DNA from: Nostoc punctiforme PCC 73102
GTDB lineage: Bacteria; Cyanobacteriota; Cyanobacteriia; Cyanobacteriales; Nostocaceae
DNA length: 32,000 bases
NCBI RefSeq assembly: GCF_000020025.1
Contig: NC_010628.1
Span: 5,280,001-5,312,000, forward strand
Direction: 5' to 3'
The first letter of the stretch is position 1; every line of letters begins with the position of its first letter. The position numbers and the translations under genes are program-made. Positions 5,501-29,295 of this stretch are shown here, piece by piece. The notes below the pieces were generated by a model. The model did not search any database. It worked only from the letters and a program-made list of their open reading frames with translations, and had not been told where the DNA came from.

Positions 5501-5833
5501 TGGCTTATAAAAGCCACACACCACATTCAAGCAAGGTTTACCTGTTTTCTGAGCAGCGATCGCTGGGTGAGTTTCGTTAGGTAAAGGAGAGCCATCTTCA
5601 TGAAGAAATTGCCACTTGGAATCGAGCAAGTTCTGCCCTACAAGTTGTTCTGTGGTTAGTCCCAAAATGCGATCGCAAGTTGCATTGCAAGCCTGGATAG
5701 TACCATCCGCCAACTGAAGCACCATTCCCTCTTCTCCACTGGCTAAGAGCGAATAATTTGCTTTTTTACTAACTTGCCGATGCAGCAGCTTTTCATTAGC
5801 CAGCTGGTTTTGGGACTTTTCCGCGTCTGGCAT
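2516..5833 (-). CDS. Hybrid sensor histidine kinase with about five PAS/PAC domains, HisKA, HATPase_c and a C-terminal receiver domain
   Basis: 1105-aa ORF. Repeated PAS/PAC-like blocks (for example YRIRHVNGEWRWF, YRIRHKDGRYVWVQDQG, EYRSLWSDGSIHWIAAKG, EKEYIRKDGSRIPI). H-box is LAILSHELRSPLNPI. N/G boxes are LLSNAVKFTP, DTGQGI, GGLGLGLAIV. Receiver is ILIVDDDADTRE..ISDLGMPEMDG..LTAY..KP. No TM segment is evident, so it is probably cytoplasmic. Confidence 0.92.
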   Translation of the reverse strand: MPDAEKSQNQLANEKLLHRQVSKKANYSLLASGEEGMVLQLADGTIQACNATCDRILGLTTEQLVGQNLLDSKWQFLHEDGSPLPNETHPAIAAQKTGKPCLNVVCGFYKPNGQLVWLLLSSQPLFQGGVDTPFAIVTTFLDITEFKQAQLEEKGNCTEDTQQVEEESWLQPEAKSIVPLASVIDVNGSQQLWDSQRLFQQIAGTLPGILYIYDLIEQRNSYVNDEIAQGWGYTPAEIQAMGKDLFTQLLHPEDLARLPTYFERFNSAHPGEVLSFEYRIRHVNGEWRWFCSYDTVHSRTVEGFPKYLLGIAFDITERRHIEISLRQSNERFELAAAAVNCLIYDWEIHRSSVERTQGLTQVLGYTQQEAEPTFEWWQQLIHPDDQQRVNNQFMASMANGNRYSIEYRIRHKDGRYVWVQDQGFAVRDTNGQVVRVVGASADITEQQAILREQQAALRDRQQIETNLRESEERIRLATSAAELGMWFWNITTNELVWTEKCKELFGLGPEVEMSYELFLNCIHPEDRQRLNEAIARCFQEKVEYDIEYRSLWSDGSIHWIAAKGRVFYEADDQPGRMMGTAQDITGRKQIENDLRQRETQLRRLVDSNIIGIMFATPDHITEANEAFLEMVGYTREELLAGKVRRKQMTPPEYHALDEQGIEQLLTVGVCNPFEKEYIRKDGSRIPILIGGALVEKDPPSWICFILDLTPRKQLEQTLRQQTEELKQANQNKDEFLAILSHELRSPLNPILGWSSLLKSRKFDEATTNRALETIERNTQLQIKLIDELLDVSRIIRGKLNLTFATVNLASVIDAALETVRLIAESKSIQIKIQLDPNVGKVSGDYYRLQQVVGNLLSNAVKFTPPNGSVEVSLSSSGELASHSALIQVKDTGQGISPEFLPHVFEYFRQADSSRTRKFGGLGLGLAIVRNLVELHGGTVTAASPGEGQGAIFTVRLPVMKESRGDEETGEGREKLNSLAIAGLRILIVDDDADTREFLHFFLQQNGALTTVAASVTEALAVIVKTIPDVLISDLGMPEMDGYSLIKLLRAMPKEEGGEIPAIALTAYAGESDRNRVLAAGFQKHLAKPVKPTELIISIADLVSQR

Positions 5834-6162
5834 TCTGTAAAGTTAAATAAATTTAAAGTTAATTTAATATTCAACGGCTTGTACTTACATAAATTTTAGC
5901 CTTATTTCTTCCATTTTTAGGCAAAATATTACTATCTAGTCGGCTTTCCCATTTGTCGATAAGTCTAAATTTAGAAAGCTATCCAGGGAAGGGTATTAAG
6001 ATTATGCCGAATCAACCTCAAGTATAAATAAAGTGATGATTGTTACACGATTAACCTGTACTAATTTTTTAGTTAAAAATTTAAATTTCTTGTGATATAT
6101 TTCTGTAATCTACAATACCCGTGATGTAGATAATATTGTCGGAGATTTTAAAATTTAGTATT

Positions 6163-6279
6163 ATGTCTAGTCAAGAGCCAAATTCTAATCAAGCATTTCA
6201 GCAAACACAGGCTACCGGAACAAGGAAGAAGAGATTACAACCTCCCCCAGACATCAAAAAACCAAAGAAAACCGAATAA
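6163..6279 (+). CDS. Possible small basic peptide (38 aa, below the ORF-track cutoff)
   Basis: Hand translation: ATG at 6163, MSSQEPNSNQAFQQTQATGTRKKRLQPPPDIKKPKKTE, TAA at 6277-6279. A perfect 34-nt palindrome follows 15 nt downstream. There is no clear SD and no homology that I can recognise. Confidence 0.3.
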   Translation: MSSQEPNSNQAFQQTQATGTRKKRLQPPPDIKKPKKTE

Positions 6280-6294
6280 AAGCGTTATAGTCCG

Positions 6295-6328
6295 TTGTAG
6301 AGACTTAATTTAAATTAAGTCTCTACAA
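6295..6328. terminator. Perfect 34-nt palindrome/hairpin (TTGTAGAGACTTAATTT|AAATTAAGTCTCTACAA), a candidate terminator
   Basis: Both arms are exact reverse complements, read directly. It lies between the small + strand ORF and the 3' end of the minus-strand coiled-coil gene pair. It is followed by TTG rather than a long T-run. Confidence 0.5.
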
Positions 6329-6394
6329 TTGTCTAAAAATAAATCAGCTTATACCAATTCTATGTGAAGCGGCATAAAATCAACCTTGATAAAA

Positions 6395-6414
6395 CAAGGA
6401 GCTTAAGCCCCTTG
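6395..6414 (-). terminator. Candidate intrinsic terminator of the coiled-coil gene pair
   Basis: CAAGGAGCTTAAGCCCCTTG forms a CAAGG/CCTTG stem. On the minus strand it is followed by TTTTA. It lies about 30 nt downstream of the stop at 6443. Confidence 0.4.
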
Positions 6415-6442
6415 CTCTATACAACGTCAAAAATAATCGGTA

Positions 6443-7522
6443 TTATTTATTTTTCGCTTGAGTCTTTGCCTGTTCTAAAGCTATTTCTTTAATAGCCTGA
6501 TATGAATTAACATTTGAAGTCCCTTCAATAGCTTTAACTGCCAAATCCTGAACTTGCTTGAGAGCAGATTCAAGTTGTTTAGAAAGATTTTGAATCCGCG
6601 TCTCTTGATTAGTAATAGTTTGTTCTAGAGATTGCAATCTTTGTTCATAGAAACGCTTTTGCCCTTCCACTTCCTTAGAATATAAATCTGATTTTACTTT
6701 CGCCTGGTAATGGGCGATGCCTTTGCCTTCTTCTATAGCTTTTTTGATAGCTGCTTCTTTGTCTTTCGGGAAAGCCTCTACCTTAGCTTTTAATTCTTCA
6801 AATTGTTTCTCTCTCTCAGAAATTGCTTTCTCTCGTTCAGCCCATTGTTTCTCTGTCTCTTGTAGTAATTCTTCTAGTTGTTTATATAGTGCTTTCTGCT
6901 CTTGTTCGTATTCGTCACTTTGCAATTGTCGTTGGAGTTCTAAATTATACTTATACTCTGATGCATCGCGTTGTCGAGTTTTCTTCAAGTTTTCATTCCG
7001 TTCTTTTATCGCCCGTTGCTGTTCTTCCTGTTCTTTTCCCCAAATATTTCTTTGTTCTAGTATTTCTTGGAATAACACTTCGGAACGCTGGTTATATTCT
7101 TCCTGATAAGCTTTTGTATTATCTTCATAAGATTGGATGAGAGTATCCAAGATATCATCAGAAATTTCTAAATTGTGCAACTGTGTTAATTGTTGGATTT
7201 CTTCTTCTAAATTTCGCCTTATTTCTTCTAAATTAGAGGCTTTTGTGGTTAGCTGTTCCGATAATTCATTAGCAGCACTGCCAAAACCTAATTGAATCTT
7301 TGCCAAGCTTTCAATTGTATTGTTCATCTTCTGTTGGACGCTAGAAAGCTGATTCATAGCTATTTTTTGTTCTAATTTAGGCTGTTCTTTAGTTCCAGAC
7401 TGGTTTTCTTTGGCAACTTTTTCAAGTTCCGATTTCAGTGCTGCTTTTTCTTTAGCTAACTCCTCAAACGCCTGAAGAATTTCTACTTTAGTATTCTTAT
7501 CAGTCGGCTTTTTCACCACCAC
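6443..7522 (-). CDS. Coiled-coil-rich protein (CCRP), distal member of a tandem paralog pair; candidate ZacK (Alr4505)-like
   Basis: 359-aa ORF. GTG start at 7522 is preceded by GGAGG 7 nt upstream. The composition is overwhelmingly E/K/Q/L with heptad-like periodicity. There is no TM segment and no catalytic motif. It is colinear with the upstream neighbour (see findings). Confidence 0.85.
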   Translation of the reverse strand: MVVKKPTDKNTKVEILQAFEELAKEKAALKSELEKVAKENQSGTKEQPKLEQKIAMNQLSSVQQKMNNTIESLAKIQLGFGSAANELSEQLTTKASNLEEIRRNLEEEIQQLTQLHNLEISDDILDTLIQSYEDNTKAYQEEYNQRSEVLFQEILEQRNIWGKEQEEQQRAIKERNENLKKTRQRDASEYKYNLELQRQLQSDEYEQEQKALYKQLEELLQETEKQWAEREKAISEREKQFEELKAKVEAFPKDKEAAIKKAIEEGKGIAHYQAKVKSDLYSKEVEGQKRFYEQRLQSLEQTITNQETRIQNLSKQLESALKQVQDLAVKAIEGTSNVNSYQAIKEIALEQAKTQAKNK

Positions 7523-7575
7523 AACAAACCTCCTCTTCAGGAATTAAAAATGGTTAAGATGCTACGGACTCGTAA

Positions 7576-8559
7576 CTATTTAGGGTTAGAACTACCAAAA
7601 GCCCTCATAGCTAAGTCTTGTGCTTGTTTTAATGCAGTTTGCAATTGAGCAGAGATACCTTCTATTTGCTCAGACTGTTTTTTAATTGTTTCTTCCAAAG
7701 ATTGAATTTTTTGCTCATAACTCTGTTTGTTAGATTCCCATTCTCTCTCAAATAAATCAGCCTCAATTTTAGCTTTTTGACTTGTTTCTTTAATTGCTTC
7801 TTCTCTAGCTTTCTTTACGGCTTCTTCCAGTTCGTTAGGAAATGTAGTTACCTTTTGTTCATAGTCTGCAAACAGTGGTTGGCGTTCAGCGAATATCTTT
7901 TCTCGTTCTGCCCAATCTTTCTCTTTCTTTTGAGAATTTTCTTGTATTTCCCTTTGTTGTTGGCGTTTTACCGCTTCGTAGCTATCTGTATTGAGTTTAC
8001 GAGTAGTTTCTAACTTATATTGAGATTCTTCTTGTTCTTGCTGGCGCTCTTTGATTAATAAATCGTTATATTCTTGGAGTTTTTCTTCATACTCAGCTTG
8101 CTCTTTTTGCCATTCTTTACGCCTAGTTGTAATTTCTTTTTCTAGTGCTTCCCTTTTACTAATAGTATCTTGCTCTAAAGTTTTTAATTTTTCTTGATGT
8201 TCTTGACTTAAAATGTCTAGAGTATCCGCTACAACTCTGATTTGTTGAAGCTCTTGTAAGCGTTGAGTTTCAATTTCTATAGCTCGGTTCAATTCATCTA
8301 ACTTAGAATTTTCCTGAGCTAGTTTTTCAGATAACGCATTGAGAATACTGCCAAACTCCAATTGTAAATCAGCTAAACCTTTGACAATACTATCAACCGT
8401 ATATGTAGAAGCTGCTTGCAGAATTTCTTGACTTTTTGCCTTGTCTGCTTCCTCTTGTTTGGTTGCTATTTTAGATTCCAGCTTTTTTCTTTGGATAATA
8501 ATTTGTTGAAATGCTTGCATTAGTTGTTGTTTGCTGTCCTTGACTCCAACTGTAGTCAT
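7576..8559 (-). CDS. Coiled-coil-rich protein (CCRP), proximal member of the tandem paralog pair; candidate ZicK (Alr4504)-like
   Basis: The ORF track gives 7576-8607. I prefer ATG at 8559 (MTTVGVKDSKQQ...) because GGGAG lies about 8 nt upstream, while the 16-aa extension (MACYPINHLPIEGSWK) has no SD. It has the same E/K/Q/L coiled-coil composition and shares blocks with 6443-7522. Confidence 0.85.
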   Translation of the reverse strand: MTTVGVKDSKQQLMQAFQQIIIQRKKLESKIATKQEEADKAKSQEILQAASTYTVDSIVKGLADLQLEFGSILNALSEKLAQENSKLDELNRAIEIETQRLQELQQIRVVADTLDILSQEHQEKLKTLEQDTISKREALEKEITTRRKEWQKEQAEYEEKLQEYNDLLIKERQQEQEESQYKLETTRKLNTDSYEAVKRQQQREIQENSQKKEKDWAEREKIFAERQPLFADYEQKVTTFPNELEEAVKKAREEAIKETSQKAKIEADLFEREWESNKQSYEQKIQSLEETIKKQSEQIEGISAQLQTALKQAQDLAMRAFGSSNPK

Positions 8560-9025
8560 CTTCCAACTCCCTTCAATAGGCAAATGATTTATTGGGTAGC
8601 AAGCCATACCAATGACTACCCTATGCAGACATCAGAGTAGCCTTTAAATCAACATTTTTCACGCAGTGTAAATACTGAAATGATTGATATAGGACACTTA
8701 GATGGTACGAATTTTCCACAGTTATGTCCTTCTATTTTTCAGGTATAGTTTTCCCTTTGGGACGTACTAGTACTTTTGTACTAAAATAAATATACTTAAC
8801 CTCATCTCTTCTTGTCAAGATAATGCTTTATATAATTGCGGCACCCAACAAAGTATTAAAAGCCGACAATCATATTAATTTAGGAGGATGATGTTGAATG
8901 TGTTACTTTTTGTAAAGAAAATCTAAAAGAATTAACCCTAGCAGAAGCGCCGTCGCACTAAGGCGAGATAATAAGTTTAATCATGCTAATTGATACAAGC
9001 ACAGTCCCAGACTTTTGTGATATCA

Positions 9026-9778
9026 ATGTATACCACTGAATCGACCAAATACTCTGCCAGAACGGAAATTGGACAAACCAGCCGTATTCTAGTAGTAGAA
9101 GATGAAGAATTAATCCAGGAAATGCTAGCTGTAGCCCTGGAAGAAGAAGGTTACGGGGTGATAACTGCACCCGATGGGCGATCTGCTATAGAGTATCTCA
9201 AAAGTTTTGAAACCAACTCAGGGGAAGTTCCCTTTGATTTGATCATTCTTGATTTGATGCTGCCACAAATCAATGGGCTAGATATATGCCGTTTGCTGCG
9301 TCATCAAGGAAACCCAGTTCCGATTTTAATGCTCAGTGCTAAGGGTAGTGAAACTGACCGCGTTCTGGGGTTAGAGGTGGGAGCAGATGACTACCTGACC
9401 AAACCTTTTAGTATGCGCGAGTTAGTGGCTCGTTGCCGCGCTTTACTCCGCCGCCAACGCCTAAGTAATTTACCACAACTACCAGTATTAAAATTCAAAG
9501 ATGTTACTTTGAATCCTCAAGAATGTCGGGTGCTGGTTCGTGGTCAAGAGGTGAGCCTTTCACCTAAAGAGTTCCGCTTGCTGGAATTGTTTATGAGTTA
9601 TGCCCGGAGGGTATGGTCGCGGGAACAATTACTAGATCAGGTTTGGGGGCCAGATTTCGTTGGTGATAGTAAAACTGTAGACGTTCATATTCGCTGGTTG
9701 CGCGAAAAATTAGAGCAAGACCCCAGTCATCCCGAATATATTGTGACTGTACGAGGTTTTGGCTATAGGTTTGGATAA
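9026..9778 (+). CDS. OmpR/PhoB-family response regulator (SphR/PhoB-like by context)
   Basis: Receiver motifs ILVVEDEE..LIILDLMLPQINGL..MLSAKG..KPF. Winged-helix output motifs are LSPKEFRLLELFM..VDVHIRWLREKLE..IVTVRGFGYRF. The track start at 8990 is TTG. The first in-frame ATG is 9026, so the start is uncertain. Confidence 0.9.
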   Translation: MYTTESTKYSARTEIGQTSRILVVEDEELIQEMLAVALEEEGYGVITAPDGRSAIEYLKSFETNSGEVPFDLIILDLMLPQINGLDICRLLRHQGNPVPILMLSAKGSETDRVLGLEVGADDYLTKPFSMRELVARCRALLRRQRLSNLPQLPVLKFKDVTLNPQECRVLVRGQEVSLSPKEFRLLELFMSYARRVWSREQLLDQVWGPDFVGDSKTVDVHIRWLREKLEQDPSHPEYIVTVRGFGYRFG

Positions 9779-9831
9779 TTAGTTTAGATAGTTGTTAGTT
9801 TTTAGTAGTCACCAACAAACTAACAACTCAA

Positions 9832-11151
9832 ATGCTTTTATTGGGATTTTTTCTGGGTTTAGCAGTAGGCATTGGGTTTTGGATTTGGCAACAGGTTCAA
9901 CTTAACCGCTACCTGGGGCGCTTATTCCGACCGTTAACCTCGCATTCTTCCAAGAAGGGACTGCTGCTGATTCCTGGGTTATGGCAGGAAATAGCGATGG
10001 TGAAACAGCAACGCCAAGATTTGCAGCAATCATTGCAAACTTACCAAGACTTGCTAGATTTTGCACCAGTGGGATATTTGCAGGTAGATGAGGAAAATCA
10101 ACTGCTGTGGTGTAATCGGCAGGCGCAGGAAATTTTGTATCTGCAAAGGTGGCAACCAGAAGAAATACGTTTACTACTAGAGTTAGTACGGTCTTACGAA
10201 CTTGACCATTTAATTGAGCAAACTCGCGATCGCCAAAAACCACAGACGGGAGAATGGATATTTCATCCATCTTGTGATGATGCGGCAGAGATGCCAACAC
10301 TAAAATCTCTGGCTTTGCGGGCATCTAGTTTGCCTTTACCTAATGGACAAGTAGGAGTATTTTTAGAAAATCGTCAACCCCTATTAGATATAAATCAAGT
10401 ACGCGATCGCTCTTTTTCCGATTTAGCCCACGAACTCAGAACGCCCTTGACTTCGATTCGCTTGGTGGTGGAAACTTTACAAATTCGCTTGGAACCACCT
10501 CTAAATCGCTGGGTTAACCGTTTGATGCAGGAAGTCGATCGGCTGATTAACTTAGTGCAAAGCTGGTTAGACCTCACCCAAATGGAAGCAAACCCAACCA
10601 TGCAATTGCAAGCCAAAGCTGTAGAATTGCGATCGCTAATTACATCTGTTTGGGAAACACTAGAACCTCTAGCACAGCGCCACCATCTATCTCTTTCTTA
10701 TTCTGGCCCAGAAAATCTTTGGATTAAAGCAGATCAAGCCCGGATTTTTCAAGTTTTTCTCAACTTGCTAGACAACAGTATTAAATACAGTCCTCCTTCT
10801 ACAAGTATTCGTGTTGAAGCGAAAATCTTATCAACAAAAAATAATGATGCTACTTCTCCAATTCTAGAAATAAATCTTATTGATTCTGGAGTCGGGTTTT
10901 CTGAGGCAGATTTACCCCACGTTTTTGAGCGATTTTATCGAGGAGATAAGGCACGAACCCATTCTCCACAAGATAGTAACTCCATCGGGGCGATCGTTGG
11001 CAATGGATTAGGATTAGCGATCGTCGAGCAAATTCTGATCGCCCACGGTGGCTCAATCAAAGCTATGAACCATCCAGAGACCGGTGGTGCGTGGATGCAA
11101 CTTCAATTTCCTGAAGTTATGGCAAACTCCTTAAGCCAAGACTATAGTTAG
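9832..11151 (+). CDS. Sensor histidine kinase, PhoR/SphS-like (N-terminal hydrophobic segment, PAS-like region, HisKA, HATPase_c)
   Basis: 439 aa. N-terminus is MLLLGFFLGLAVGIGFWIW. H-box is FSDLAHELRTPLTSI. N/G boxes are LLDNSIKYSP, DSGVGF, GLGLAIV. It starts 53 nt after the regulator gene and is followed 28 nt later by phoU. Confidence 0.9.
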   Translation: MLLLGFFLGLAVGIGFWIWQQVQLNRYLGRLFRPLTSHSSKKGLLLIPGLWQEIAMVKQQRQDLQQSLQTYQDLLDFAPVGYLQVDEENQLLWCNRQAQEILYLQRWQPEEIRLLLELVRSYELDHLIEQTRDRQKPQTGEWIFHPSCDDAAEMPTLKSLALRASSLPLPNGQVGVFLENRQPLLDINQVRDRSFSDLAHELRTPLTSIRLVVETLQIRLEPPLNRWVNRLMQEVDRLINLVQSWLDLTQMEANPTMQLQAKAVELRSLITSVWETLEPLAQRHHLSLSYSGPENLWIKADQARIFQVFLNLLDNSIKYSPPSTSIRVEAKILSTKNNDATSPILEINLIDSGVGFSEADLPHVFERFYRGDKARTHSPQDSNSIGAIVGNGLGLAIVEQILIAHGGSIKAMNHPETGGAWMQLQFPEVMANSLSQDYS

Positions 11152-11179
11152 TAATATCTTCACCTTTAAGACAACAAGT

Positions 11180-11848
11180 GTGAAAGCTGTCCATTATGGT
11201 TCCAATCCTCAAAGACCCGAACTAGCACGCGCCATTAGGCGCTTAGAACGGGACGTATTACGCATGGGTGCTTTGGTAGAACAATCATTTCGCCTCAGCC
11301 ACCAAGCGTTATTTGCTCGTAACTTAACAGCAGCTGAGGAACTTCCTCTATTAGATAAAAAGATTGATCGCTTTTATCGTCAAATCGAATCAGACTGTAC
11401 GGCGATTATGACGCTGCAAGCGCCTACGGCTCAAGATTTGCGCTGCTTGAGTGCCTTTATGCAACTGGTGCGAGACTTAGAGCGCATTGGCGATTATGCT
11501 GAAGATTTAGCTGAGATTGCGATTAAAATTTTTCCTTATGCGCCTCATACGTGTTTATCTGAAATTGAAGCCATGTCCCTTCACGCGCAGGCAATGCTAG
11601 CAACTAGCTTGAAGGCTTTGGGAGATTTCGATGAAGGCGGTGGTCGACGTTTAAAGCACCTAGATGATACTGTAGACGATGCTTACGATCGCGTTTATCA
11701 AACTTTAGCCCAACAACGGGATGTACCTGGTGTAGTCGAGCCAATTGTGCTGCTAGCACTGGCAATTCGTTGTCTAGAACGGATGGCAGATCATGCAACT
11801 AATATCGGTCAGAGGGTGGCATATATTGTCACCGGTCAACGCTCTTAA
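11180..11848 (+). CDS. phoU: PhoU-family phosphate signalling modulator (SphU-like)
   Basis: 222 aa with a GTG start. Two PhoU repeats carry the characteristic acidic helices: VRDLERIGDYAEDLAEIA and IRCLERMADHATNIGQRVAYIVTG. Confidence 0.88.
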   Translation: MKAVHYGSNPQRPELARAIRRLERDVLRMGALVEQSFRLSHQALFARNLTAAEELPLLDKKIDRFYRQIESDCTAIMTLQAPTAQDLRCLSAFMQLVRDLERIGDYAEDLAEIAIKIFPYAPHTCLSEIEAMSLHAQAMLATSLKALGDFDEGGGRRLKHLDDTVDDAYDRVYQTLAQQRDVPGVVEPIVLLALAIRCLERMADHATNIGQRVAYIVTGQRS

Positions 11849-12370
11849 TTGACGGTTCATGAGTCCATAGAGTCCATAGGCTAAAGCCACTACCCATAGC
11901 TTCCCGATAAATTGGGTGGATTTTGACTTTGGTTCCCCTCTGCTTTCTAAGGCTATCCATTAACCGGATCTGTCTTAACATTTGCCAGAGCGATCGCTCT
12001 TGTTTTTCTAACCCTCATTACTTCGCCGTTAATTCTCAATAAAAACACAGTTCTAGCAAGAATATTAAGCGCAAATTTGTCAAGTATGCCTAACACCTAA
12101 GTCTCTGAGATACTTACAAAAGAAGGGTTAAAAGATTACAAAAAAAGACGTGGGTAACGCATAGCTTTTTAAGTGCAGAACTGTCTTAGCCTACAAGGAT
12201 TTTGCATAACGAGTACTGAATAACGATAAAATATTGGGCTTTTATAGTTGGTAAATTATAGGTATTAAATTTTAATTGTTACCATTAAAATTAGCGAGAA
12301 TAATTATAAATCTATATGAACAGTTAGAAAAATTATTTACTGTTTAATTATAAAAATAGTAGCTTCTGAT

Positions 12371-13813
12371 TCAATTTTTCATCGGCTTTTTTAGAGCTTG
12401 GATATCACGTACAAGCCAAAATATAATTACTGCTAGAGTTGGTACAACCGTTAAAAAATCGCACAGTCGAATACCTCGTAATAGATAGTTAAAAACAGTA
12501 CTGCTAATACAGAAGACGATGGTAGTAATCACGAATCTTTTTGAATTAGAATCTATGTTTAAAGCTACGACTGCCAACAGCACAGAGGAATACCAAGAGC
12601 AATACCAAGGAGCAGCAAACAAAAATAATATTAAGGTAATCCATCCTATATTTATAGTAAAAGTAGTTTCAGAATACTTTTTTTTCAAAAATGGTTTTAC
12701 CAGAATAATCAAGTAAGAAACTACAAATATAGAAAAGATTATAGGTTTTAATGTTGAGAATACGGTTTCTTGAAAAGTTGCAGGAAGGTTTAGAATGTTC
12801 AAACTTAGTACATTCTTAATAAAACCATATAATGAACCACCTACTCTGTCTTTAACGCCAGGATTGAAAAGGCTTGTCCAAGCATCGACTGAAGGTAAAG
12901 CTATCAGAGAAGTTGCAAAAATTATAGCTACAGAGATAAAAATAGCACTAAATAGAATTTTCCAACGTTGTTGCTTAATCAAATAAACAAAAATTAGGGG
13001 CAACCAAACAATTGGTAATGTTTTAATTAGAAAACCAATCCAAGCTGTAACAATCGCAGCTATATAATTATAGTTTTTAAGGCATATTATTAAAATAATT
13101 AAAATGGTAGAAATTAAAACATCTATATGGGCATTCGTAATCTGCTCGTACACAAGTAATGGGCTAAGTAAATATGCAATTGTTACATTAGCTTTATGAG
13201 GAGAGTTTTTTAAATGCCCCCAAATTAAGTAGCTATTTAATATATGGAATAAAAGACAGATTAATTTAAATGCATAAATTCCTAAACTAGGAGTAATTGC
13301 AACGAAAAGACCGGAAAACATAAAAAATAGTTGAGATATAGGCCCATAAGTAGAAGTCTGTTTCCAAATAAGAAATGGAGACAATTCTGAGGTAAATGCG
13401 CTTGCAGGATTCAGAAAAGGGTTAATTCCATTTAAATACATCAAACCATAATGTACATACAAATTTATATCAGTAGTTATTGGATAACCTGCAAAGGCAA
13501 TTAACAGAAAAAATGAACTATTCTTTAAAATTTTTATAAAGGTTATATCTTTTTTGTTATTTCTGTTTATTATTAGCCAAGCAATATATATAATATTTAA
13601 ACAAATGAATTCTATACCCGTTCTTATTTGGTCAAAGGGGTTAGGAAAATCAGGTAAATATCGACCAGTGGAATTACCTAAAGCCTCAAGATAAAAAGAA
13701 TAAGCTCTAATTGCTAATTCTCCACATAATAGTAATGAAAAGAATATGGCTAAACTTAATAATATTTTGTTTTTCTTAGTATTAGATAAATTGTTTGCGT
13801 TTAGTAGAAACAT
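12371..13813 (-). CDS. Polytopic integral membrane protein, GT-C-like (DUF2029/PimE- or ArnT-style polyprenyl-phosphate-sugar-dependent glycosyltransferase candidate)
   Basis: 480 aa with at least 10 predicted hydrophobic spans. It is rich in F/I/L/N/K/Y as expected of very AT-rich DNA. It contains loop motifs such as TSTYGPISQLFF. The family call rests on architecture plus the neighbouring GT2-GtrA gene, not on an alignment. Confidence 0.6.
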   Translation of the reverse strand: MFLLNANNLSNTKKNKILLSLAIFFSLLLCGELAIRAYSFYLEALGNSTGRYLPDFPNPFDQIRTGIEFICLNIIYIAWLIINRNNKKDITFIKILKNSSFFLLIAFAGYPITTDINLYVHYGLMYLNGINPFLNPASAFTSELSPFLIWKQTSTYGPISQLFFMFSGLFVAITPSLGIYAFKLICLLFHILNSYLIWGHLKNSPHKANVTIAYLLSPLLVYEQITNAHIDVLISTILIILIICLKNYNYIAAIVTAWIGFLIKTLPIVWLPLIFVYLIKQQRWKILFSAIFISVAIIFATSLIALPSVDAWTSLFNPGVKDRVGGSLYGFIKNVLSLNILNLPATFQETVFSTLKPIIFSIFVVSYLIILVKPFLKKKYSETTFTINIGWITLILFLFAAPWYCSWYSSVLLAVVALNIDSNSKRFVITTIVFCISSTVFNYLLRGIRLCDFLTVVPTLAVIIFWLVRDIQALKKPMKN

Positions 13814-14163
13814 AAAAAATCCATCATTAACAATATAAAATGCTTTAGAACAGGTATTTAAACCCTAACTTAAACTGAAGTTATGTGTTGACTTTGCGGG
13901 TATTAAACACTTCAAACCATCAAATTTTCCCTTGTATTATAATTATAAATAATGATATTTGTTTGCCATTGAAGAATTTTATGCAATTAAATGCATGTAA
14001 ACTCAATAGTACTATAAAGTTACATAGGAAACTTGAACATCTTCATGATTACTTGCAAAACTCAAAAAAATAATATAGCAATCATAAATCATTCATGAGA
14101 TGTATAGCAATTTTAAACCATTCCTGATAAAATACAATACTGAAAAAGCAACTAAAGTCATGT

Positions 14164-14440
14164 TTGCGACTAAGTACAGGGTGTGTCATGTGGATAAAAT
14201 CAATAACAAAGTTTATTGAAAGCAGCCAAGATAATGGTGATATTAAACGAGCAAATGCAGTTAATATGCCACTCTGTGGATACAGTTATGGGGCAATAAT
14301 GCCAATATTGGGTATTTCGAGTTGTTTCATCAGTAAATGGAAAAAATCATTTTTTCAAATGGGACTGAAGGTTTAAAGCTTGCACGTAAAGGAAGTTATG
14401 GACTTCTGAATATATAAAACGTGCAGAGATAATAGACAAG
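14164..14440 (+). pseudogene. Decayed N-terminal (HTH) fragment of an IS630-family-type transposase
   Basis: The 70-aa ORF reads ..IKRANAVNMPLCGYSYGAIMPILGISSCFISKWKKSF... The homology continues only after a frameshift (TEGLKLARKGSYGLL) and past stop codons (KRAEII). This pattern matches the conserved N-terminus of cyanobacterial IS630-like transposases as I remember it. No DDE domain follows. Confidence 0.5.
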
Positions 14441-14599
14441 GGTTTTAAACCCACCTCCGTTCATAAGGCAGGAGGCAGATATCAAACTTTTCAGAACATC
14501 TAAACTGTAACAAAAAACTTTGGCTAACCAGGTTCAGTCAATAAAGCGCGCAGATGTTCAACTCTATTTCCTTTAGTCTTTACAGATAAATGTGAAATT

Positions 14600-15847
14600 A
14601 TGAAGACAAACTCATCCAACTCGCTGTTAGCAGTACCAACAGGCCCACTAAAGATTTCAGAGTTGCCCCCTAATAATGTGGGTACAAGTGGTGAATCTAT
14701 CCATTTATCTCTAGTAATTCCCACTTATAAAGAGCGTGACAACATCCAAAATGTGGTCAGTATATTGAGTCAGTTACTGGATGAATCAATTCCAGGAAAC
14801 TATGAACTAATTGTGGTAGACGATGATAGCCCAGACCGAACTTGGGAGATAGCACAATCCCTGACAACAGAATACCCTCAATTGCGGGTGATGCGACGAG
14901 AACAAGAACGGGGGCTGTCTTCGGCAGTGATTCGTGGGTGGCAAGCAGCTACGGGAAGTGTGTTAGGGGTGATTGATGGAGATTTGCAGCATCCGCCAGA
15001 GGTGCTGATGCAACTTTTGCGTAGTGTTGAGCAGGGAGCGGATTTGGCAGTAGCTAGTCGTCATGTTGAAGGAGGCGGTGTTAGTAGCTGGAGTGTTGTC
15101 AGGCGTTTATTGTCTCGTGGCGCTCAATTATTAGGCTTGGTTATTTTACCGGGAGTACTGGGCAGAGTTTCTGACCCTATGAGTGGTTATTTTATGGTGC
15201 GCCGAAGTGCGATCGCTAATGCAACACTCAATCCAGTGGGATACAAAATTCTCTTAGAAGTAATTGGCCGGGGAAAGGTAGATGAAGTTGCCGAAGTTGG
15301 ATATGTATTTTGTGAACGCAAAGAGGGTGAAAGCAAAGTTACATGGAAACAATACATAGATTACATTCACCATTTAGTAAGGTTACGGCTAACCGGAGGT
15401 AATAAAAAACAAAAACTTACTCAACAAACGGGTTTCCCCATTGGCCGATTTATCCGCTTTGGCTTAGTAGGACTGAGTGGGGTATTTGTGGATATGACAA
15501 TTCTTTATTTACTCAGCGATCCCACTACCTTGGCTTGGCCTCTAACACGCAGCAAAATTATGGCTGGTGAAATTGCGATTTTAAATAATTTTTTGTGGAA
15601 TGACGCTTGGACATTTGCTGATGTCAGCGCTAGACAGCAAGAATGGCATCAACGCCTAAAGCGGTTTTTGAAGTTCAACGCTATTTGCCTGGCTGGATTG
15701 GTATTGAATGTACTGGTATTAAATTTGGTATTCAATTTTCTTATTCCTAACCGTTATATTGCCAACTTTATTGCGATCGCAGTTGCTACTATCTGGAATT
15801 TCTGGATTAATTTGAAACTTAGCTGGCGCGTCACCGAAGTAAAATAA
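14600..15847 (+). CDS. GT2 polyprenyl-phosphate glycosyltransferase (Dpm1/Ppm1-like) fused to a C-terminal GtrA-like 4-TM domain
   Basis: 415 aa. GT-A motifs are LSLVIPTYKERDNI, ELIVVDDDSPDRT and VIDGDLQHPP. The C-terminal part is FIRFGLVGLSGVFVDMTILYLL..WNFWINLKLSWR, typical of GtrA-family domains. Confidence 0.85.
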   Translation: MKTNSSNSLLAVPTGPLKISELPPNNVGTSGESIHLSLVIPTYKERDNIQNVVSILSQLLDESIPGNYELIVVDDDSPDRTWEIAQSLTTEYPQLRVMRREQERGLSSAVIRGWQAATGSVLGVIDGDLQHPPEVLMQLLRSVEQGADLAVASRHVEGGGVSSWSVVRRLLSRGAQLLGLVILPGVLGRVSDPMSGYFMVRRSAIANATLNPVGYKILLEVIGRGKVDEVAEVGYVFCERKEGESKVTWKQYIDYIHHLVRLRLTGGNKKQKLTQQTGFPIGRFIRFGLVGLSGVFVDMTILYLLSDPTTLAWPLTRSKIMAGEIAILNNFLWNDAWTFADVSARQQEWHQRLKRFLKFNAICLAGLVLNVLVLNLVFNFLIPNRYIANFIAIAVATIWNFWINLKLSWRVTEVK

Positions 15848-15944
15848 TCACAACGAGATTTTGATTTTTGCCTTTAGAACGAACTTAAATTTCAGGATAA
15901 AGGTAATATTGTAGTAAAAAACGATACCTAGTAGCTAAAGTTAT

Positions 15945-15968
15945 CCCCTTTTGACAAGCCAAAAGGGG
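15945..15968 (+). terminator. Small hairpin CCCCTTTT-gacaagcc-AAAAGGGG downstream of the GT2-GtrA gene
   Basis: Exact 8-bp stem read directly, about 100 nt after the stop at 15847. It lacks a following T-run. Confidence 0.35.
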
Positions 15969-16187
15969 AAAATTGCGCGCTTATATATTGAAGGAGTGTA
16001 GTAGACCTAATTTACACTGGTTCTAAGAAACTTGATGAGGCAGTTTCTTACTTTGTTTCCTATTCTTTGCACTGCGTAGCCTAAACCCAAGCTTATTGGC
16101 TTATGAAAACGGGAAATTAGAAATCTTTTTCTCTCCCTAATACACACTTACGGTGTATACACAAGTCTTAAAGACTTAGCTTAATGC

Positions 16188-16240
16188 GGTTTCGCTCGTT
16201 CCCATACGGAGTATAGGAGCGAGAGAAACCCACTTTTTTT
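16188..16240 (+). terminator. Strong Rho-independent terminator with no annotated gene immediately upstream
   Basis: GGTTTCGCTCGTTCC..loop..GGAGCGAGAGAAACC forms a stem of about 15 bp with one mismatch. It is followed by CAC then TTTTTTT (16234-16240). The T-run is present only on the + strand. Confidence 0.6.
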
Positions 16241-16541
16241 GGTTGGAAACTTGCTCAATAAAAATAATTTAACTAAATATTTTACTAAAAGCTTACCTAT
16301 TCTTAAACTTGCACAACTAAAGTAGCAGATAAACAACTGAAAAGAATGAGTATCTATATAACTCATAGATACTTAAAACAAGAAGTTGTTTCAATGAAAA
16401 GATTTTGAGTTAGTCTCTAGCTCTCATGGCTAAAAATACACGTAATTAAATACACAGGTGGATTTTGTTTTATACAAATTATTAGAGTTTCTTAATCATT
16501 TTAAATATCGAGATTCCCTGATAATTATGTAGTTACGGTTA

Positions 16542-17171
16542 ATGATATATTCTACAACTCCTACTTCAAACTCTTCTGCCGTGTCAAATAGCTCTGCTTT
16601 AAGCGGACGATTGTCCCAGCAGATATTTACCCGTAGGGAAATAATTCCACTTCAAAATGACGTACTTTGGCGTATTGAATACGGTGCAGTTCGTACCTTA
16701 ACATGGGGTGAAGATGGAACATTCATCACTCTTGGTTATTGGGGATTAGGGGATCTGATTGGCTATCCTTTATCTAGGGTCAAGCCCTACCAAATTGAAT
16801 GTCTCACAGGCGTGGAAGTAAGCATTGTACCGCCTCATTTGTGGCATCAAGATATTAATGCTTTGTTGTCCCATATTCAACAGGCAGAGGATCTACTAAG
16901 TATTGTGCATCGAAAACCAATTTCGCTGCGCTTATGGCAATTTTTGGTGTGGTTAAGTGAAAAATTTGGACGTGATGTAGATAAGGGCAAGCTAATTGAT
17001 TTAAATGTTACCCATCAAGATATTGCTGAAGTATTAAATACGACGCGAGTAACAGTTACCCGACTTTTACAGCAATTGGAAGAAGAAGGAACAGTTCTAC
17101 GCCACAAACGCCGCATTATTTTGCGTTTACCCAATAAATTAATTAAAAATTATGGTTCAGCAGTATGTTAG
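16542..17171 (+). CDS. Crp/Fnr-family transcriptional regulator
   Basis: 209 aa. The N-terminal part is cNMP-binding-like beta-roll sequence (TLGYWGLGDLIGYPL). The C-terminal part is a Crp-type HTH (VTHQDIAEVLNTTRVTVTRLLQQLEEEGTV). Confidence 0.85.
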   Translation: MIYSTTPTSNSSAVSNSSALSGRLSQQIFTRREIIPLQNDVLWRIEYGAVRTLTWGEDGTFITLGYWGLGDLIGYPLSRVKPYQIECLTGVEVSIVPPHLWHQDINALLSHIQQAEDLLSIVHRKPISLRLWQFLVWLSEKFGRDVDKGKLIDLNVTHQDIAEVLNTTRVTVTRLLQQLEEEGTVLRHKRRIILRLPNKLIKNYGSAVC

Positions 17172-17303
17172 CTGAATTGCTTGTAAGATTCACAGAATGT
17201 AATGTATAATCTTATCTGTGATTGTGTGTGGAATTCCCAAAAGTAAAGTGTTATAAGCGTTTTACAGTGTTCGGGTTATTTAGGTGTGAGTGAGAGTAAA
17301 AAC

Positions 17304-18965
17304 ATGACAAAACGATTCTGGAATCTTTTTAAGGTTAGTCCAGTTATTGTAGCTGCGACATTTTTTGTTGCGAATAGCGCTCTAGCTGCTGAAGTCAACG
17401 AACAAGTAACAAATGCTGCCCAGTTATCTGAAGCTCAAGACTCTAATGATATGAGTCAGGTAACATCAGTTTCGCAATTTTCAGATGTGCAACCCACAGA
17501 TTGGGCATTCCAAGCTTTACAATCTCTAGTTGAGCGCTACGGCTGTATTGCAGGTTATCCCAACAGTACCTATCGTGGGAACCGTGCTTTGACCCGTTAT
17601 GAATTTGCCGCAGGTTTGAATGCCTGTTTAGATCGGGTTAACGAACTGATTGCTACAGCTACTGCCGATTTGGTCAGCAAACAAGATTTAGCTACTTTAC
17701 AGCGCTTACAAGAAGAATATTCTGCTGAATTAGCAACTCTGCGCGGTCGTGTGGATGGACTAGAAGCTCGCACTTCTGAGTTGGAAGCTAATCAGTTCTC
17801 TACTACCACCAAGTTGGTTGGAGAAGCAATTTTCGCAGTGTCTGATGTTTTTGGTGACACTAGAGCCGCTCGTGGTGGCAATCCTACTCAAGACTTGAAT
17901 TCCAATACCACTTTTAGCGATCGCGTTCGTTTGAAATTGTACAGCAGTTTCACTGGTACAGACCAGTTGGAAACACGTCTAAATGCTGGCAATATCGTCT
18001 CCAATCGTGGTAATGATGCATTGGGTACTGGTACTGGTACCAATATGAGCCGCTTAGGTTTTGATGGAGATACTGGCAACAGCGTTAGCATCGATAAACT
18101 CAACTATGCTTTCAACTTGACTGATGCAGTACGTGTCAAAGTTGATGCCATTGGTGCTGAATTATACGAAAACGTTAATAACTTCAACTCTGACTTTGCA
18201 AGCTCTGGTAGAGGTGCGCTCTCACGTTATGGACGTTTCAGCCCCATATATCGCCAAGGTCAAGGTGGCAGTGGTGTAACTGTTACCTTCAACCCTAAAG
18301 GCGCTATCAGTTTAAGCGGTGCTTATCTAGCTAGAACTGCTAATGACCCTACCCTTAATAATGGGTTGTTGGATGGTGATAACGCTATCTTTGGTCAGTT
18401 ATCTTTCCAACCCACCAAAGCCTTTAATATTGGTCTAACTTACGCTCGTACTTATCAAACTAATCTTGTTAACAATACTGTTAACAATAACCTTTTCCAA
18501 GGTACAGGTAGTATTTTTGCTAACAATCCCTTTGGGAATAACACTCGTACTATATCCAACAACTACGGTGTAGAAGCTACCTTCCAATTTAGCCCGACGT
18601 TAGCTATTAGTGGTTGGGGAGGTTATACAACTGCTGATGCGATTACTGGTGCTAATGCAGGTACAGATGCAGACGTTTGGTATTGGGCTGGAGCGCTTGC
18701 TTTAAAAGACTTTGGTGGCGAAGGCAACGTTTTAGGTATCATCTTTGGTCAACCACCCAAAGTTACTGGTGGTAGCATCAAAAATGTCGCTGGTAATACT
18801 ACCTTCGACGACAATACCTCTTATCACTTAGAGGGTCTTTACAAGTACAAGGTTTCCGATAATATTCAGGTAACACCTGGCTTGTTGGTAATCTTCAATC
18901 CAGAACACAACGACGCTAACGACACTGAATACGTAGCTACCCTGCGTACTACTTTCTCCTTCTAA
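17304..18965 (+). CDS. Outer-membrane porin with N-terminal SLH domain, coiled-coil linker and OprB-type beta-barrel
   Basis: The track start at 17286 is GTG. ATG at 17304 gives MTKRFWNLFKVSPVIVAATFFVANSALA (signal peptide). The SLH motif is DWAFQALQSLVERYGCIAGYPNSTYRGNRALTRYEFAAGL. The coiled-coil segment is LQRLQEEYSAELATLRGRVDGLEARTSELE. The barrel is rich in G/N/T/Y and ends in a terminal F (TLRTTFSF). Confidence 0.9.
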   Translation: MTKRFWNLFKVSPVIVAATFFVANSALAAEVNEQVTNAAQLSEAQDSNDMSQVTSVSQFSDVQPTDWAFQALQSLVERYGCIAGYPNSTYRGNRALTRYEFAAGLNACLDRVNELIATATADLVSKQDLATLQRLQEEYSAELATLRGRVDGLEARTSELEANQFSTTTKLVGEAIFAVSDVFGDTRAARGGNPTQDLNSNTTFSDRVRLKLYSSFTGTDQLETRLNAGNIVSNRGNDALGTGTGTNMSRLGFDGDTGNSVSIDKLNYAFNLTDAVRVKVDAIGAELYENVNNFNSDFASSGRGALSRYGRFSPIYRQGQGGSGVTVTFNPKGAISLSGAYLARTANDPTLNNGLLDGDNAIFGQLSFQPTKAFNIGLTYARTYQTNLVNNTVNNNLFQGTGSIFANNPFGNNTRTISNNYGVEATFQFSPTLAISGWGGYTTADAITGANAGTDADVWYWAGALALKDFGGEGNVLGIIFGQPPKVTGGSIKNVAGNTTFDDNTSYHLEGLYKYKVSDNIQVTPGLLVIFNPEHNDANDTEYVATLRTTFSF

Positions 18966-27987: not shown

Positions 27988-28245
27988 TTTGAGGATGTAC
28001 TAAAGCTGAGATTAGGCGATCGCATTCAAGTTTTTAATGCAGTGTAGGAATGAGTACTATAAGATGAACCCTTTGGGCGGGAATGGTTTGCCTGAATGTT
28101 TCTTCAGGTTACTGAAATTAGCGATCGCGATGGTTCCTCTATCAATTGCCTCGTCTGCTTATACAACGGCGCTGAGTAAGGAATTCAAGGCATCTACGAA
28201 TAAAATCACTACAATTAGTGCTGGTTGCAGAAGTAGTGAGGGCAT
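27988..28245 (+). pseudogene. Decayed duplicate of the 3' end of gene 25932-26555
   Basis: By-eye alignment with 26295-26552. Shared blocks are TTTGAGGATG(c/t)ACTAAAG, TAGGCGATCGCATT, GAATGGTTT, GAAATTAGC, TTCCTCTA, CAACGGCGCTGAGTA, GAATTCAAGG, ATCTACGAAT and GCAGAAG. I estimate roughly 70 percent identity. In-frame stops are present (TAG at about 28036 and others). Confidence 0.7.
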
Positions 28246-28308
28246 GATCTTAACGAATAATTATTAAAAAGTACATCCTTTGCCCTTCACAATTTTTTCT
28301 GAGTGCTG

Positions 28309-28794
28309 CTAATCCCTAATGATTTCAATTCTAAGATTGGGTAATCCTTCTACTGTGCTAAGGTCGGTAACGTCTGTATCTCCTATAAATAATTCCGTAA
28401 GATTAGGAAGGTTAGCAAGTGGACTAAGGTCGCTGATAGGTGTATTTGGATGGAATAAACTATTACGTTCAAATGGCATTTCCAATGTACCTAAATATAG
28501 TTTACGTAAGTTTTTAAGATTAACAAGAGGACTGAAATCACTAATCTCATCTTCAAGAATATTTAAGCTTTCTAAATTAGTAAGGTTAGTTAGTAAACCT
28601 AAATCGCTGATACCTATTGTCACTAGACTAAGAGTAGTAAGCTGAGTCAGGGTCTTTAGAAATTGACAATCTATAGCTTTATTTTTATTAAAAATTCCCA
28701 AGCTAACTAAATTTGACATCTTCACTAAAGGACTCAAATCTCTTATTTCAGTTTGATCTAAAATAAGGCTAGAGAGACTAGAAAGATTGCACAA
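28309..28794 (-). CDS. Leucine-rich repeat (LRR) protein, probably a 5'-truncated gene remnant
   Basis: About seven 22-residue LRRs of the LxxLxxLxLxxxxIxDLSPL type (LSSLILDQTEIRDLSPLVKMSNL; LESLNILEDEISDFSPLVNLKNL; LTELFIGDTDVTDLSTVEGLPNL). The track start is TTG. The frame stays open with LRR-like sequence up to 28866 and contains no ATG or GTG. Confidence 0.6.
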   Translation of the reverse strand: MCNLSSLSSLILDQTEIRDLSPLVKMSNLVSLGIFNKNKAIDCQFLKTLTQLTTLSLVTIGISDLGLLTNLTNLESLNILEDEISDFSPLVNLKNLRKLYLGTLEMPFERNSLFHPNTPISDLSPLANLPNLTELFIGDTDVTDLSTVEGLPNLRIEIIRD

Positions 28795-29295
28795 TTGGCT
28801 AATGTCATTAATTTTAATACCACTTAAGTCTAGATAAGTCAGATTAGAAAGAAACCATAAGTATAATTACAAAATATTATTTAATTTTCAATGTAATTTA
28901 TACAAAGCTGAATTAAACTTTTTTCGCCATAACTTAAGAACAAATTAAGCAATACGATGTGTTATTTATTGCTGGGCAACGACATAGCACTAAAATGCAG
29001 ACCCAAACTAAGGTATGGTTTTGGAAAGTAAATTAATACTTGATGGATAATATTTATCCAAGTGGTGATGCCTATAGACAAGTCGCTTCTCTACAAGACG
29101 CTGTGCGGAGGCATCGTCGCATTTACTCTCTGCCCAAAAGTGTACATAAACCAGAAACAGAAGTATTATTAAACACTTCTGTTGATGAAAGCACGATCAA
29201 TATTCTTACTTGAATCGTGCCCCAGCACCCAAATAATTTGGCGTAACCTGAAAGCCAGAAATGCTAGAGAAGCGGTGTATGAGTTTTGGAATACC

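Follow-up and report, generated by a model that had tools for sequence, protein, structure and literature searches.

In the actinobacterial pathway to lipomannan, lipoarabinomannan (LAM) and phosphatidylinositol mannosides (PIM), the family 2 glycosyltransferase (GT2) Ppm1 makes polyprenyl-phosphate mannose, and the polytopic GT-C enzymes MptA, MptB and PimE use it outside the cytoplasm (PMC3485146, PMC2440535). GtrA-dependent three-component systems combine a GT2 synthase, a GtrA-type module and a GT-C enzyme (PMC13390465), and they also include CsbB/GtcA/YfhO in Firmicutes. Here we describe a locus of the cyanobacterium Nostoc punctiforme PCC 73102 that encodes a 480-aa GT-C-like membrane protein and a 415-aa synthase resembling dolichyl-phosphate mannose synthase (DPMS). 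The two genes lie between phoU and crp in a 32,000-nucleotide stretch of the chromosome (NC_010628.1, positions 5,280,001 to 5,312,000, hereafter the window). We regard it as probable that positions 11853-16258 of the window are a composite of the N. punctiforme clade, built from an accessory GT-C gene, the stub of an IS630-family insertion sequence (IS) and a relocated core DPMS gene, and that the two enzymes are paired in mannose transfer. The pair is uncharacterised in cyanobacteria and belongs to an already known type of system. To our knowledge, GT-C enzymes are essentially unstudied in cyanobacteria, and a literature search returned no paper on these GT-C/synthase genes in the phylum.

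The synthase gene probably encodes a DPMS-type polyprenyl-phosphate mannose synthase, as judged from its sequence. A first-pass annotation, made from the DNA letters without database searches, had called the product a GT2 polyprenyl-phosphate sugar synthase fused to a GtrA-like domain, and both domains scored above their Pfam cut-offs. The GT2 domain (PF00535) covers residues 37-203 (112 bits, E=2.8e-32), and the four-helix GtrA/DPMS membrane domain (PF04138, GtrA_DPMS_TM) covers residues 286-408 (86.6 bits, E=1.8e-24). The Pyrococcus furiosus DPMS (PDB: 5MLZ), known from structure and biochemistry, aligns over the full length of the synthase, from the GT2 domain to the C-terminal GtrA-like domain (query 32-410 to chain 21-373; E=3.1e-84). 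The catalytic motifs are kept between the two proteins, namely VVDDDSPDRTWE, DxDLQHPP in the form D(G/A)DLQHPP, and DP(M/V)SG(Y/F)F. The window enzyme differs from its archaeal relative in being bacterial, and its lipid is presumably undecaprenyl or another bacterial polyprenyl phosphate, not dolichol.

The 480-aa protein is predicted to adopt a GT-C fold closest to the ALG6 / PIG-M / ALG3 type. Its AlphaFold2 (AF2) model is confident (pLDDT 91.6, pTM 0.91) and contains 19 helices, about 13 or more of them membrane helices. The model superposes on solved GT-C enzymes. The top Foldseek matches in the Protein Data Bank (PDB) were ALG6 (6snh, E=9e-4), PIG-U, GPI-MT-I (9wno) and ALG3 (9s6r, TMt 0.64), with further matches to AglB, PglB, ArnT, STT3 and EmbA/B, and non-GT-C folds appeared only at probability below 0.1. 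Precomputed annotation places the exact window protein in PF26314 (MptA_B_family) and does not flag the match as weak or faint; 79 of 81 homologues are assigned to this family as well. The annotation had proposed a GT-C-like protein, and this holds; the protein is neither a transporter nor an O-antigen ligase. No match to GT87 (PF09594) was found for the window protein at E<=0.1. Two remote relatives (P0077, 31.1 bits; P0384, 37.8 bits) do exceed the GT87 cut-off of 25 bits, so the family neighbours GT87 while the window protein is not a member.

A profile search with the GT-C family returned about 180 clusters at E<=1e-30 and 8681 at E<=1e-3. Twelve residues are invariant in an alignment of 40 sequences reaching down to 22% identity: D115, Y119, G123, P132, Y156, K183, P218, K264, W284, S327, L396 and W407. 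D115 belongs to the motif (S/T)xD(I/V)xxYxxxG...NP(F/Y), and in the model it lies in the loop and helix that follow the third predicted membrane helix. Homologues carry the JGI name 'alpha-1,6-mannosyltransferase', which is an automatic annotation transfer. A match to APH-1 in the PDB search (E=0.1) was taken as chance. The pilin glycosyltransferase Ogt of Synechococcus belongs to GT41 and is hence unrelated.

Among described systems, Ppm1/MptA/MptB/PimE is the nearest parallel, and the proposed two-step logic would be the same. In the window GT-C, conserved aromatic residues and prolines come after the invariant acidic D115. The protein also has the MptA_B_family match, and its remote relatives match GT87, the PimE family. 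Sequence searches linked it to none of the solved structures. The synthase, with its fused four-helix membrane domain, represents the archaeal/eukaryotic DPMS type and is not Ppm1-like, and the cyanobacterial host has no known lipomannan or PIM acceptors. Gtr systems share the division of labour and, in the serotype-converting GtrC, a variable accessory GT-C. They differ in that the window has no separate GtrA ORF, the domain being fused to the synthase, and in that the GT-C belongs to another family. The set of a small separate GtrA, a GtrB and a prophage-borne GtrC that makes up a serotype-conversion cassette is not found here; the flanks of the insert contain no phage genes. GtrB and ArnC match the synthase in the catalytic domain only (E 1e-13 to 1e-9; Synechocystis GtrB, PDB: 5EKP, E=1.6e-13). 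ArnC/ArnT resembles the pair in overall logic, and both proteins are distant sequence or fold matches. The synthase scores 52.5 bits against the 529-bit cut-off of the ArnC model NF007986, ArnT is at Foldseek rank 10 for the GT-C (E=0.44), and no other arn genes lie nearby. The annotation had cited ArnC/ArnT, Ppm1/PimE and the Gtr cassettes as examples alike. Among characterised relatives, DPMS/Ppm1 with MptA/B- and PimE-type mannosyltransferases are the closest, and ArnC/ArnT and Gtr are analogies only.

The borders of the insert are set by Nostoc sp. 'Lobaria pulmonaria (5183) cyanobiont' (L088), the only close genome with an empty site that was compared directly. Its gene order matches that of the insert flanks and runs two hypothetical genes, phoB, phoR, phoU, a 426-bp spacer, crp, a porin gene and a DUF3318 gene, with no glycosyltransferase genes between phoU and crp. 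Blastn homology to L088 stops at window position 11852 (L088 7578) and restarts at 16259 (L088 7731). These limits define the insert as 11853-16258, a 4.4-kb segment that stands in place of about 152 bp of the ancestral phoU-crp spacer. The genes phoB-phoR-phoU-crp-porin are also contiguous in six loci of other genera (Calothrix, Tolypothrix, Anabaena and Scytonema-type).

The insert-bearing order is common to at least seven genomes or assemblies (loci L001, L009, L010, L083, L084, L089, L150 and L151). Carriers include N. punctiforme UO1, Nostoc sp. UCD121, LEGE 12450, LEGE 12447, N. muscorum FACHB-395 and several run assemblies, and the exact GT-C protein is on record in many N. punctiforme read assemblies. 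Because the arrangement recurs in several genomes, the insertion is a clade-level event and not specific to one strain. The annotation had proposed a strain-specific insertion into a conserved block; alignment with related genomes bears out the insertion, and the restriction to one strain falls. The L088 spacer sequence displaced by the insert (7579-7730) contains a long perfect hairpin (GATCCCCGACTTCT ... AGAAGTCGGGGATC) that may be a terminator or a dispersed repeat used as an insertion target.

The synthase is native to Nostocales and has moved. Homology to about 77 other Nostocales loci is restricted to window positions 14484-15894, which comprise the gene, 116 bp upstream and about 47 bp downstream. 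In 54 of 80 Nostocales loci, all other Nostoc included, the same synthase gene is followed 106 bp on and on the same strand by a gene for a 'glycosyltransferase family 39' (GT39) protein, a PMT_2-like GT-C of about 620 aa. A ManC/ManB fusion comes next in 24 loci. This dpms-GT39-(manCB) operon is the ancestral home of the window copy, which unlike the operon gene is detached from GT39 and lies beside an MptA/B-family GT-C.

N. punctiforme keeps the donor locus (L090) without its synthase. There, cbiM and GT39 diverge across 990 bp, ManCB follows GT39, and the GT39 protein (P0288) is 83% identical. Between cbiM and GT39 lies a 98-bp stub (L090 7864-7962) with the last codons and 3' flank of a DPMS-like gene, 76% identical to window 15813-15894. 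No second synthase copy at >= ~73% identity is listed for the sister genomes. Since a stub remains at the ancestral site, the gene is absent there and no second copy is seen, we conclude that the core gene was copied into the phoU-crp spacer and the original then deleted. A search of the window for a GT39 remnant beside the relocated synthase found none. The annotation had read the segment as one imported surface-glycosylation module, and this did not stand: AT-richness and accessory status apply to the GT-C part and the IS remnant alone, and the GT2-GtrA gene is native.

The GT-C gene has a different history. In other Nostoc, its homologues (66-77% aa identity, 77-85% DNA identity) are found at sites unrelated to this one; the UHCC 0926 gene, for example, lies between an acyltransferase gene and thiS, and thrS and a GHMP kinase gene flank the one in UHCC 0302. 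The DNA common to these loci is the coding sequence plus about 80 bp upstream; of the upstream region of the window gene, only the 80-bp stretch 13975-14054 is common with UHCC 0926. Compared with LEGE 12450, LEGE 12447 and FACHB-395, the window is short of about 190 bp at about position 13850, some 40 bp upstream of the GT-C start; in those strains the additional DNA is bounded by a TTTAATAC-like direct repeat. The promoter region of the GT-C gene is therefore not the same in all strains.

The AT-richness of this part of the window, first judged by eye, is borne out by a sliding profile. GC content in 500-bp windows is 0.25-0.33 across 12000-14500 and 0.40-0.48 on both sides, and the two lowest 1-kb bins of the entire window are 12-13 kb (0.311) and 13-14 kb (0.276). 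The GT-C ORF has a GC content of 0.299 and a third-position GC content (GC3) of 0.225, against a GC3 of 0.25-0.42 in sixteen other ORFs. The segment 11853-12370 has 0.341, and the DPMS-like gene is normal at 0.433. The AT-driven N/K/I/F/Y bias ascribed to the 480-aa protein is also supported: FYMINK residues make up 39% of it, compared with 22% of a homologue encoded in a genome of 50% GC. The GC content of the GT-C gene is 0.28-0.30 in every Nostoc context, against 0.40-0.44 for the locus. This deficit is smaller in other low-GC cyanobacterial lineages and absent in lineages of about 50% GC. As the gene is low in GC at every Nostoc site, low GC is a durable trait of this accessory gene in Nostocales and no proof of recent import from afar.

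Chance alone would give about 0.1 copies of the HIP1 octamer GCGATCGC in the window; 29 are present, none of them between 11990 and 15209. The near-absence of HIP1 that the annotation noted is thus real, but it carries no significance of its own. With 0.91 sites per kb, a 3.2-kb stretch would lack HIP1 with a probability of about 0.05. About 1.5 such gaps are to be expected across the window, where 5669-10226 is a longer one. We therefore dropped HIP1 depletion as an independent sign of foreignness. One HIP1-centred, terminator-like hairpin lies at 11987-12000, inside the 3' flank of the GT-C gene.

Between the two glycosyltransferase genes lies the transposase remnant that the annotation had recognised as decayed. 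The small window ORF and its continuation past a 1-bp frameshift correspond to an intact 84-aa ORF of LEGE 12450 (L009). This ORF is 57% identical to the N-terminus of a Calothrix plasmid transposase (tblastn, E=1e-21), and several of its matches to cyanobacterial plasmid transposases are annotated IS630. The window remnant gave a weak HTH_23 match (E=4.9e-4); the 84-aa stub had no Pfam HTH match at E<=0.1. Only about 84 N-terminal residues are left of the element, and searches turned up neither a DDE part nor terminal inverted repeats or a duplication. The stub is likely a trace of the rearrangement that built the insert. LEGE 12447 alone has some 100 bp of additional DNA with inverted ends (ACAGCGCTTCCGGCTAT ... 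ATAGCTGGCGGAAGTGCTGT) within its IS630 remnant (L010 ~9574-9674, corresponding to window ~14262); this insertion resembles a small miniature inverted-repeat transposable element (MITE).

Scanning metagenome contigs with the GT-C family alignment gave 58 further loci. In three lineages besides that of N. punctiforme, a full-length DPMS-like orthologue (64-68% identity) adjoins the GT-C homologue, and all arrangements differ. One (L113-L117, L124 and L144) has the synthase followed by the GT-C 98-110 bp downstream, with a GT4 gene next in L115. Another (L098) carries genes for GH5, a protein like the 480-aa GT-C, the DPMS-like synthase, a PMT_2-type GT-C and two GT2 enzymes, all on one strand. 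The last (L140) has the GT-C, a 770-bp gap and the synthase. HIP1 sites occur on all the metagenome contigs with this adjacency. The cluster of the metagenomic cyanobacterial contig L098 (206-10159) also holds a galactose-oxidase-like protein, and it places both GT-C classes with the synthase. Across Nostocales, a GT39- or PMT_2-type GT-C adjoins the synthase in 63 of 80 loci; of the other 17, three from the N. punctiforme clade have the MptA/B-type GT-C by the synthase. On a Coleofasciculaceae contig, the GT-C homologue ends a Wzz/Wzx/GT4/GT2/GT2/Wzy/WecG cluster with no DPMS-like gene, a context that makes polysaccharide one possible acceptor.

We infer the sugar, the donor-acceptor link and the acceptor as follows. 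The DPMS-like enzyme would transfer mannose from GDP-mannose to polyprenyl phosphate at the cytoplasmic membrane face. The lipid-linked mannose would then reach the periplasmic face, possibly with help from the fused GtrA/DPMS domain. There the GT-C, acting through the invariant Asp115 in a predicted extracytoplasmic loop, would move mannose to a periplasmic or surface acceptor, for which a polysaccharide, a glycolipid or a glycoprotein are candidates. The GT39-type GT-C kept elsewhere in the genome would draw on the same donor pool. The annotation had proposed a two-step periplasmic glycosylation, and the recurrent adjacency in independent lineages speaks for this general scheme, with sugar and acceptor at the level of deduction. 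A wider and rather doubtful proposal is that cyanobacteria have a polyprenyl-phosphate-mannose-dependent envelope mannosylation like Ppm1/Pmt/Mpt, in which the core GT39-type GT-C would start mannosylation of glycolipids or proteins, while elongation or branching of the mannan would fall to the sporadic, fast-evolving GT-C of the MptA/B family.

A number of observations weigh against the paired, mannose-specific composite. Local Pfam and NCBIfam scans gave no match for the GT-C protein, although the local Pfam-A scan returned no PF26314 for any family member and its copy seems to lack that model, so that a null from Pfam is not evidence of absence for recently added families. PDB searches with the single sequence and with the 40-sequence profile found no GT-C relative, and family placement rests on the precomputed Pfam match, the fold and bridging through relatives. 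Mannose is deduced solely from DPMS homology and the ManC/ManB neighbour, and the synthase motifs occur also in ArnC and GtrB, which use other sugars. A search of the insert borders for terminal inverted repeats, border repeats and target duplications gave only chance-level matches. The two window genes diverge, with 787 bp and the IS stub between them, so they do not form an operon, and they could have come to lie side by side as a side effect of IS-mediated rearrangement. If so, they would be accidental neighbours, and the GT-C would use another lipid-linked donor or serve an unrelated polysaccharide pathway, for instance a Wzx/Wzy exopolysaccharide cluster. The GT-C genes that stand alone beside unrelated genes in other Nostoc fit such an accident, as does the Coleofasciculaceae cluster; in about 13 of 17 informative clusters (65% identity), including Nostoc L081, L085 and L092, the GT-C homologue is not beside the synthase. 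The adjacency in the remaining four of about 17 lineages argues the other way, since it recurs independently, in varied orders and with tight same-strand pairs separated by gaps of 98-148 bp. By a rough estimate, chance adjacency of a single-copy gene among about 5000 genes would occur at ~4e-4 per lineage. The GT-C family is also named after enzymes that depend on polyprenyl-phosphate mannose (PMC3485146), and a core synthase can supply a GT-C in trans even where the genes are apart. We consider an accidental neighbourhood possible, though unlikely.

Two other readings concern the state of the GT-C gene and the age of the arrangement. The GT-C could be a dispensable passenger in decay, with AT-richness and fast evolution arising from relaxed selection. 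Against three clade members, it shows 87-89% aa identity, dN 0.055-0.062, dS 0.135-0.164 and dN/dS 0.34-0.46, whereas the flanking genes other than the porin show 96-100% identity, dN 0.000-0.017, dS 0.03-0.14 and dN/dS <=0.16. Its dN is thus about 10 times that of its neighbours, which is compatible with relaxed constraint and counts against the paired reading; moreover, five close strains differ from one another at 86 of 480 positions and the adjoining IS element is visibly decaying. However, the ORF is full-length and gap-free over 480 codons in every clade member examined, and dN/dS is well below 1. Variation clusters at residues 1-90 and 331-385, away from the conserved core (91-330 and 391-420), all 12 family-invariant residues are kept and the AF2 model is confident. 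Low GC does not signal decay, since the family shows it throughout Nostocales and in other cyanobacterial settings of low GC. These patterns fit a live gene under relaxed or diversifying selection, and decay seems improbable to us. Alternatively, the order phoU-GT-C-dpms-crp could be ancestral for Nostoc and the empty sites due to loss, as the single directly compared close genome would allow. The contiguity of phoU with crp-porin in the six outgroup loci, the dpms-GT39 operon in 54 of 80 Nostocales loci, the dpms 3' stub at the exact ancestral position and the IS remnant within the insert all oppose this, and we judge it very improbable. The clade-specific composite with a mannose-transfer pairing remains the reading that we prefer.

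Recombination was considered as a source of the GT-C allele, since the gene is 87-89% identical where its neighbours are 98-100% identical. Allele replacement is unlikely, as the dS of the GT-C gene exceeds that of the flanks by a factor of only about 1.5-2, unlike the porin core, where dS is 0.42. The porin gene itself shows a divergent block: DNA identity to LEGE 12447 and FACHB-395 is only 70-85% at 17800-18900 but 96-100% on either side, and neighbouring genes have a dS of about 0.1. This porin core looks like an allelic replacement or hypervariable surface loops.

Table 1. Features of the insert and its flanks, in window positions.
Feature	Position	Strand	Basis or remark
phoB	8990-9778	+	ORF; upstream of phoR and phoU
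phoR	9832-11151	+	ORF; between phoB and phoU
phoU, left border gene	11180-11848	+	Pfam PhoU E=7.7e-38; 99% identical in sister strains
Composite insert	11853-16258		Blastn against the empty-site locus L088
3' flank of GT-C gene	11853-12370		No homology to L088 or other GT-C loci
GT-C-fold glycosyltransferase (predicted), 480 aa, MptA_B_family	12371-13813	-	ORF, PF26314, AF2, Foldseek
AT-rich region upstream of GT-C gene	13814-14163		Alignment with sister strains
IS630-family transposase remnant, N-terminal helix-turn-helix (HTH) part only	14164-14417	+	Tblastn, HTH_23; frameshifted
Small ORF, part of IS630 remnant	14164-14376	+	ORF list
Relocated native block: DPMS-like gene and flanks	14484-15894	+	Homology limits across ~77 Nostocales genomes
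DPMS-like synthase, 415 aa, GT2 and GtrA/DPMS domains	14600-15847	+	Pfam, 5MLZ match
Filler with hairpin-forming short repeats	15895-16258		No homology to L088, other GT2-GtrA loci or GT39
crp-family regulator, right border	16542-17171	+	Pfam; contiguous with phoU in L088 and outgroups
SLH/OprB porin, right border	17286-18965	+	Pfam; contiguous with phoU in L088 and outgroups

A promoter and terminator scan stayed at background level, and Rfam gave zero matches in 11000-17500. A Pho-box-like pattern matched 16 times against 10.3 expected, and since it is not enriched there is no evidence for Pho control of the insert. Upstream of phoB, two minus-strand ORFs (6443-7522, 359 aa, and 7576-8607, 343 aa) with GC of about 0.35 and GC3 of 0.25-0.28 have no Pfam match. 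They occupy this position in all related Nostoc, the empty-site genome included, and are under strong purifying selection (dN/dS 0.05-0.10). The window also has low GC (0.338) at 28001-29000, where ORFs 28309-28794 (-) and 28319-28645 (+) overlap.

We see the insert as surface-glycan gene shuffling of a fairly ordinary, if interesting, kind. Its relocation record is intact, with the empty site, the scar at the donor site and the IS remnant all preserved. This makes the locus a clean, datable case in which a core gene was cut from its ancestral operon and re-homed by an accessory gene. The persistent GC content of about 29% of the GT-C gene across Nostoc warns against equating low GC with recent foreign origin.

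N. punctiforme is genetically tractable and symbiotically competent. The locus thus offers a testable candidate pair for extracytoplasmic mannosylation in a cyanobacterium. On the wider and rather doubtful proposal of a cyanobacterial envelope mannosylation, the donor-synthase gene of the N. punctiforme clade would have been rewired beside a variable GT-C, possibly yielding a lineage-specific surface mannan. Such a mannan could matter for lectin-mediated partner recognition or for the evasion of phages or grazers.

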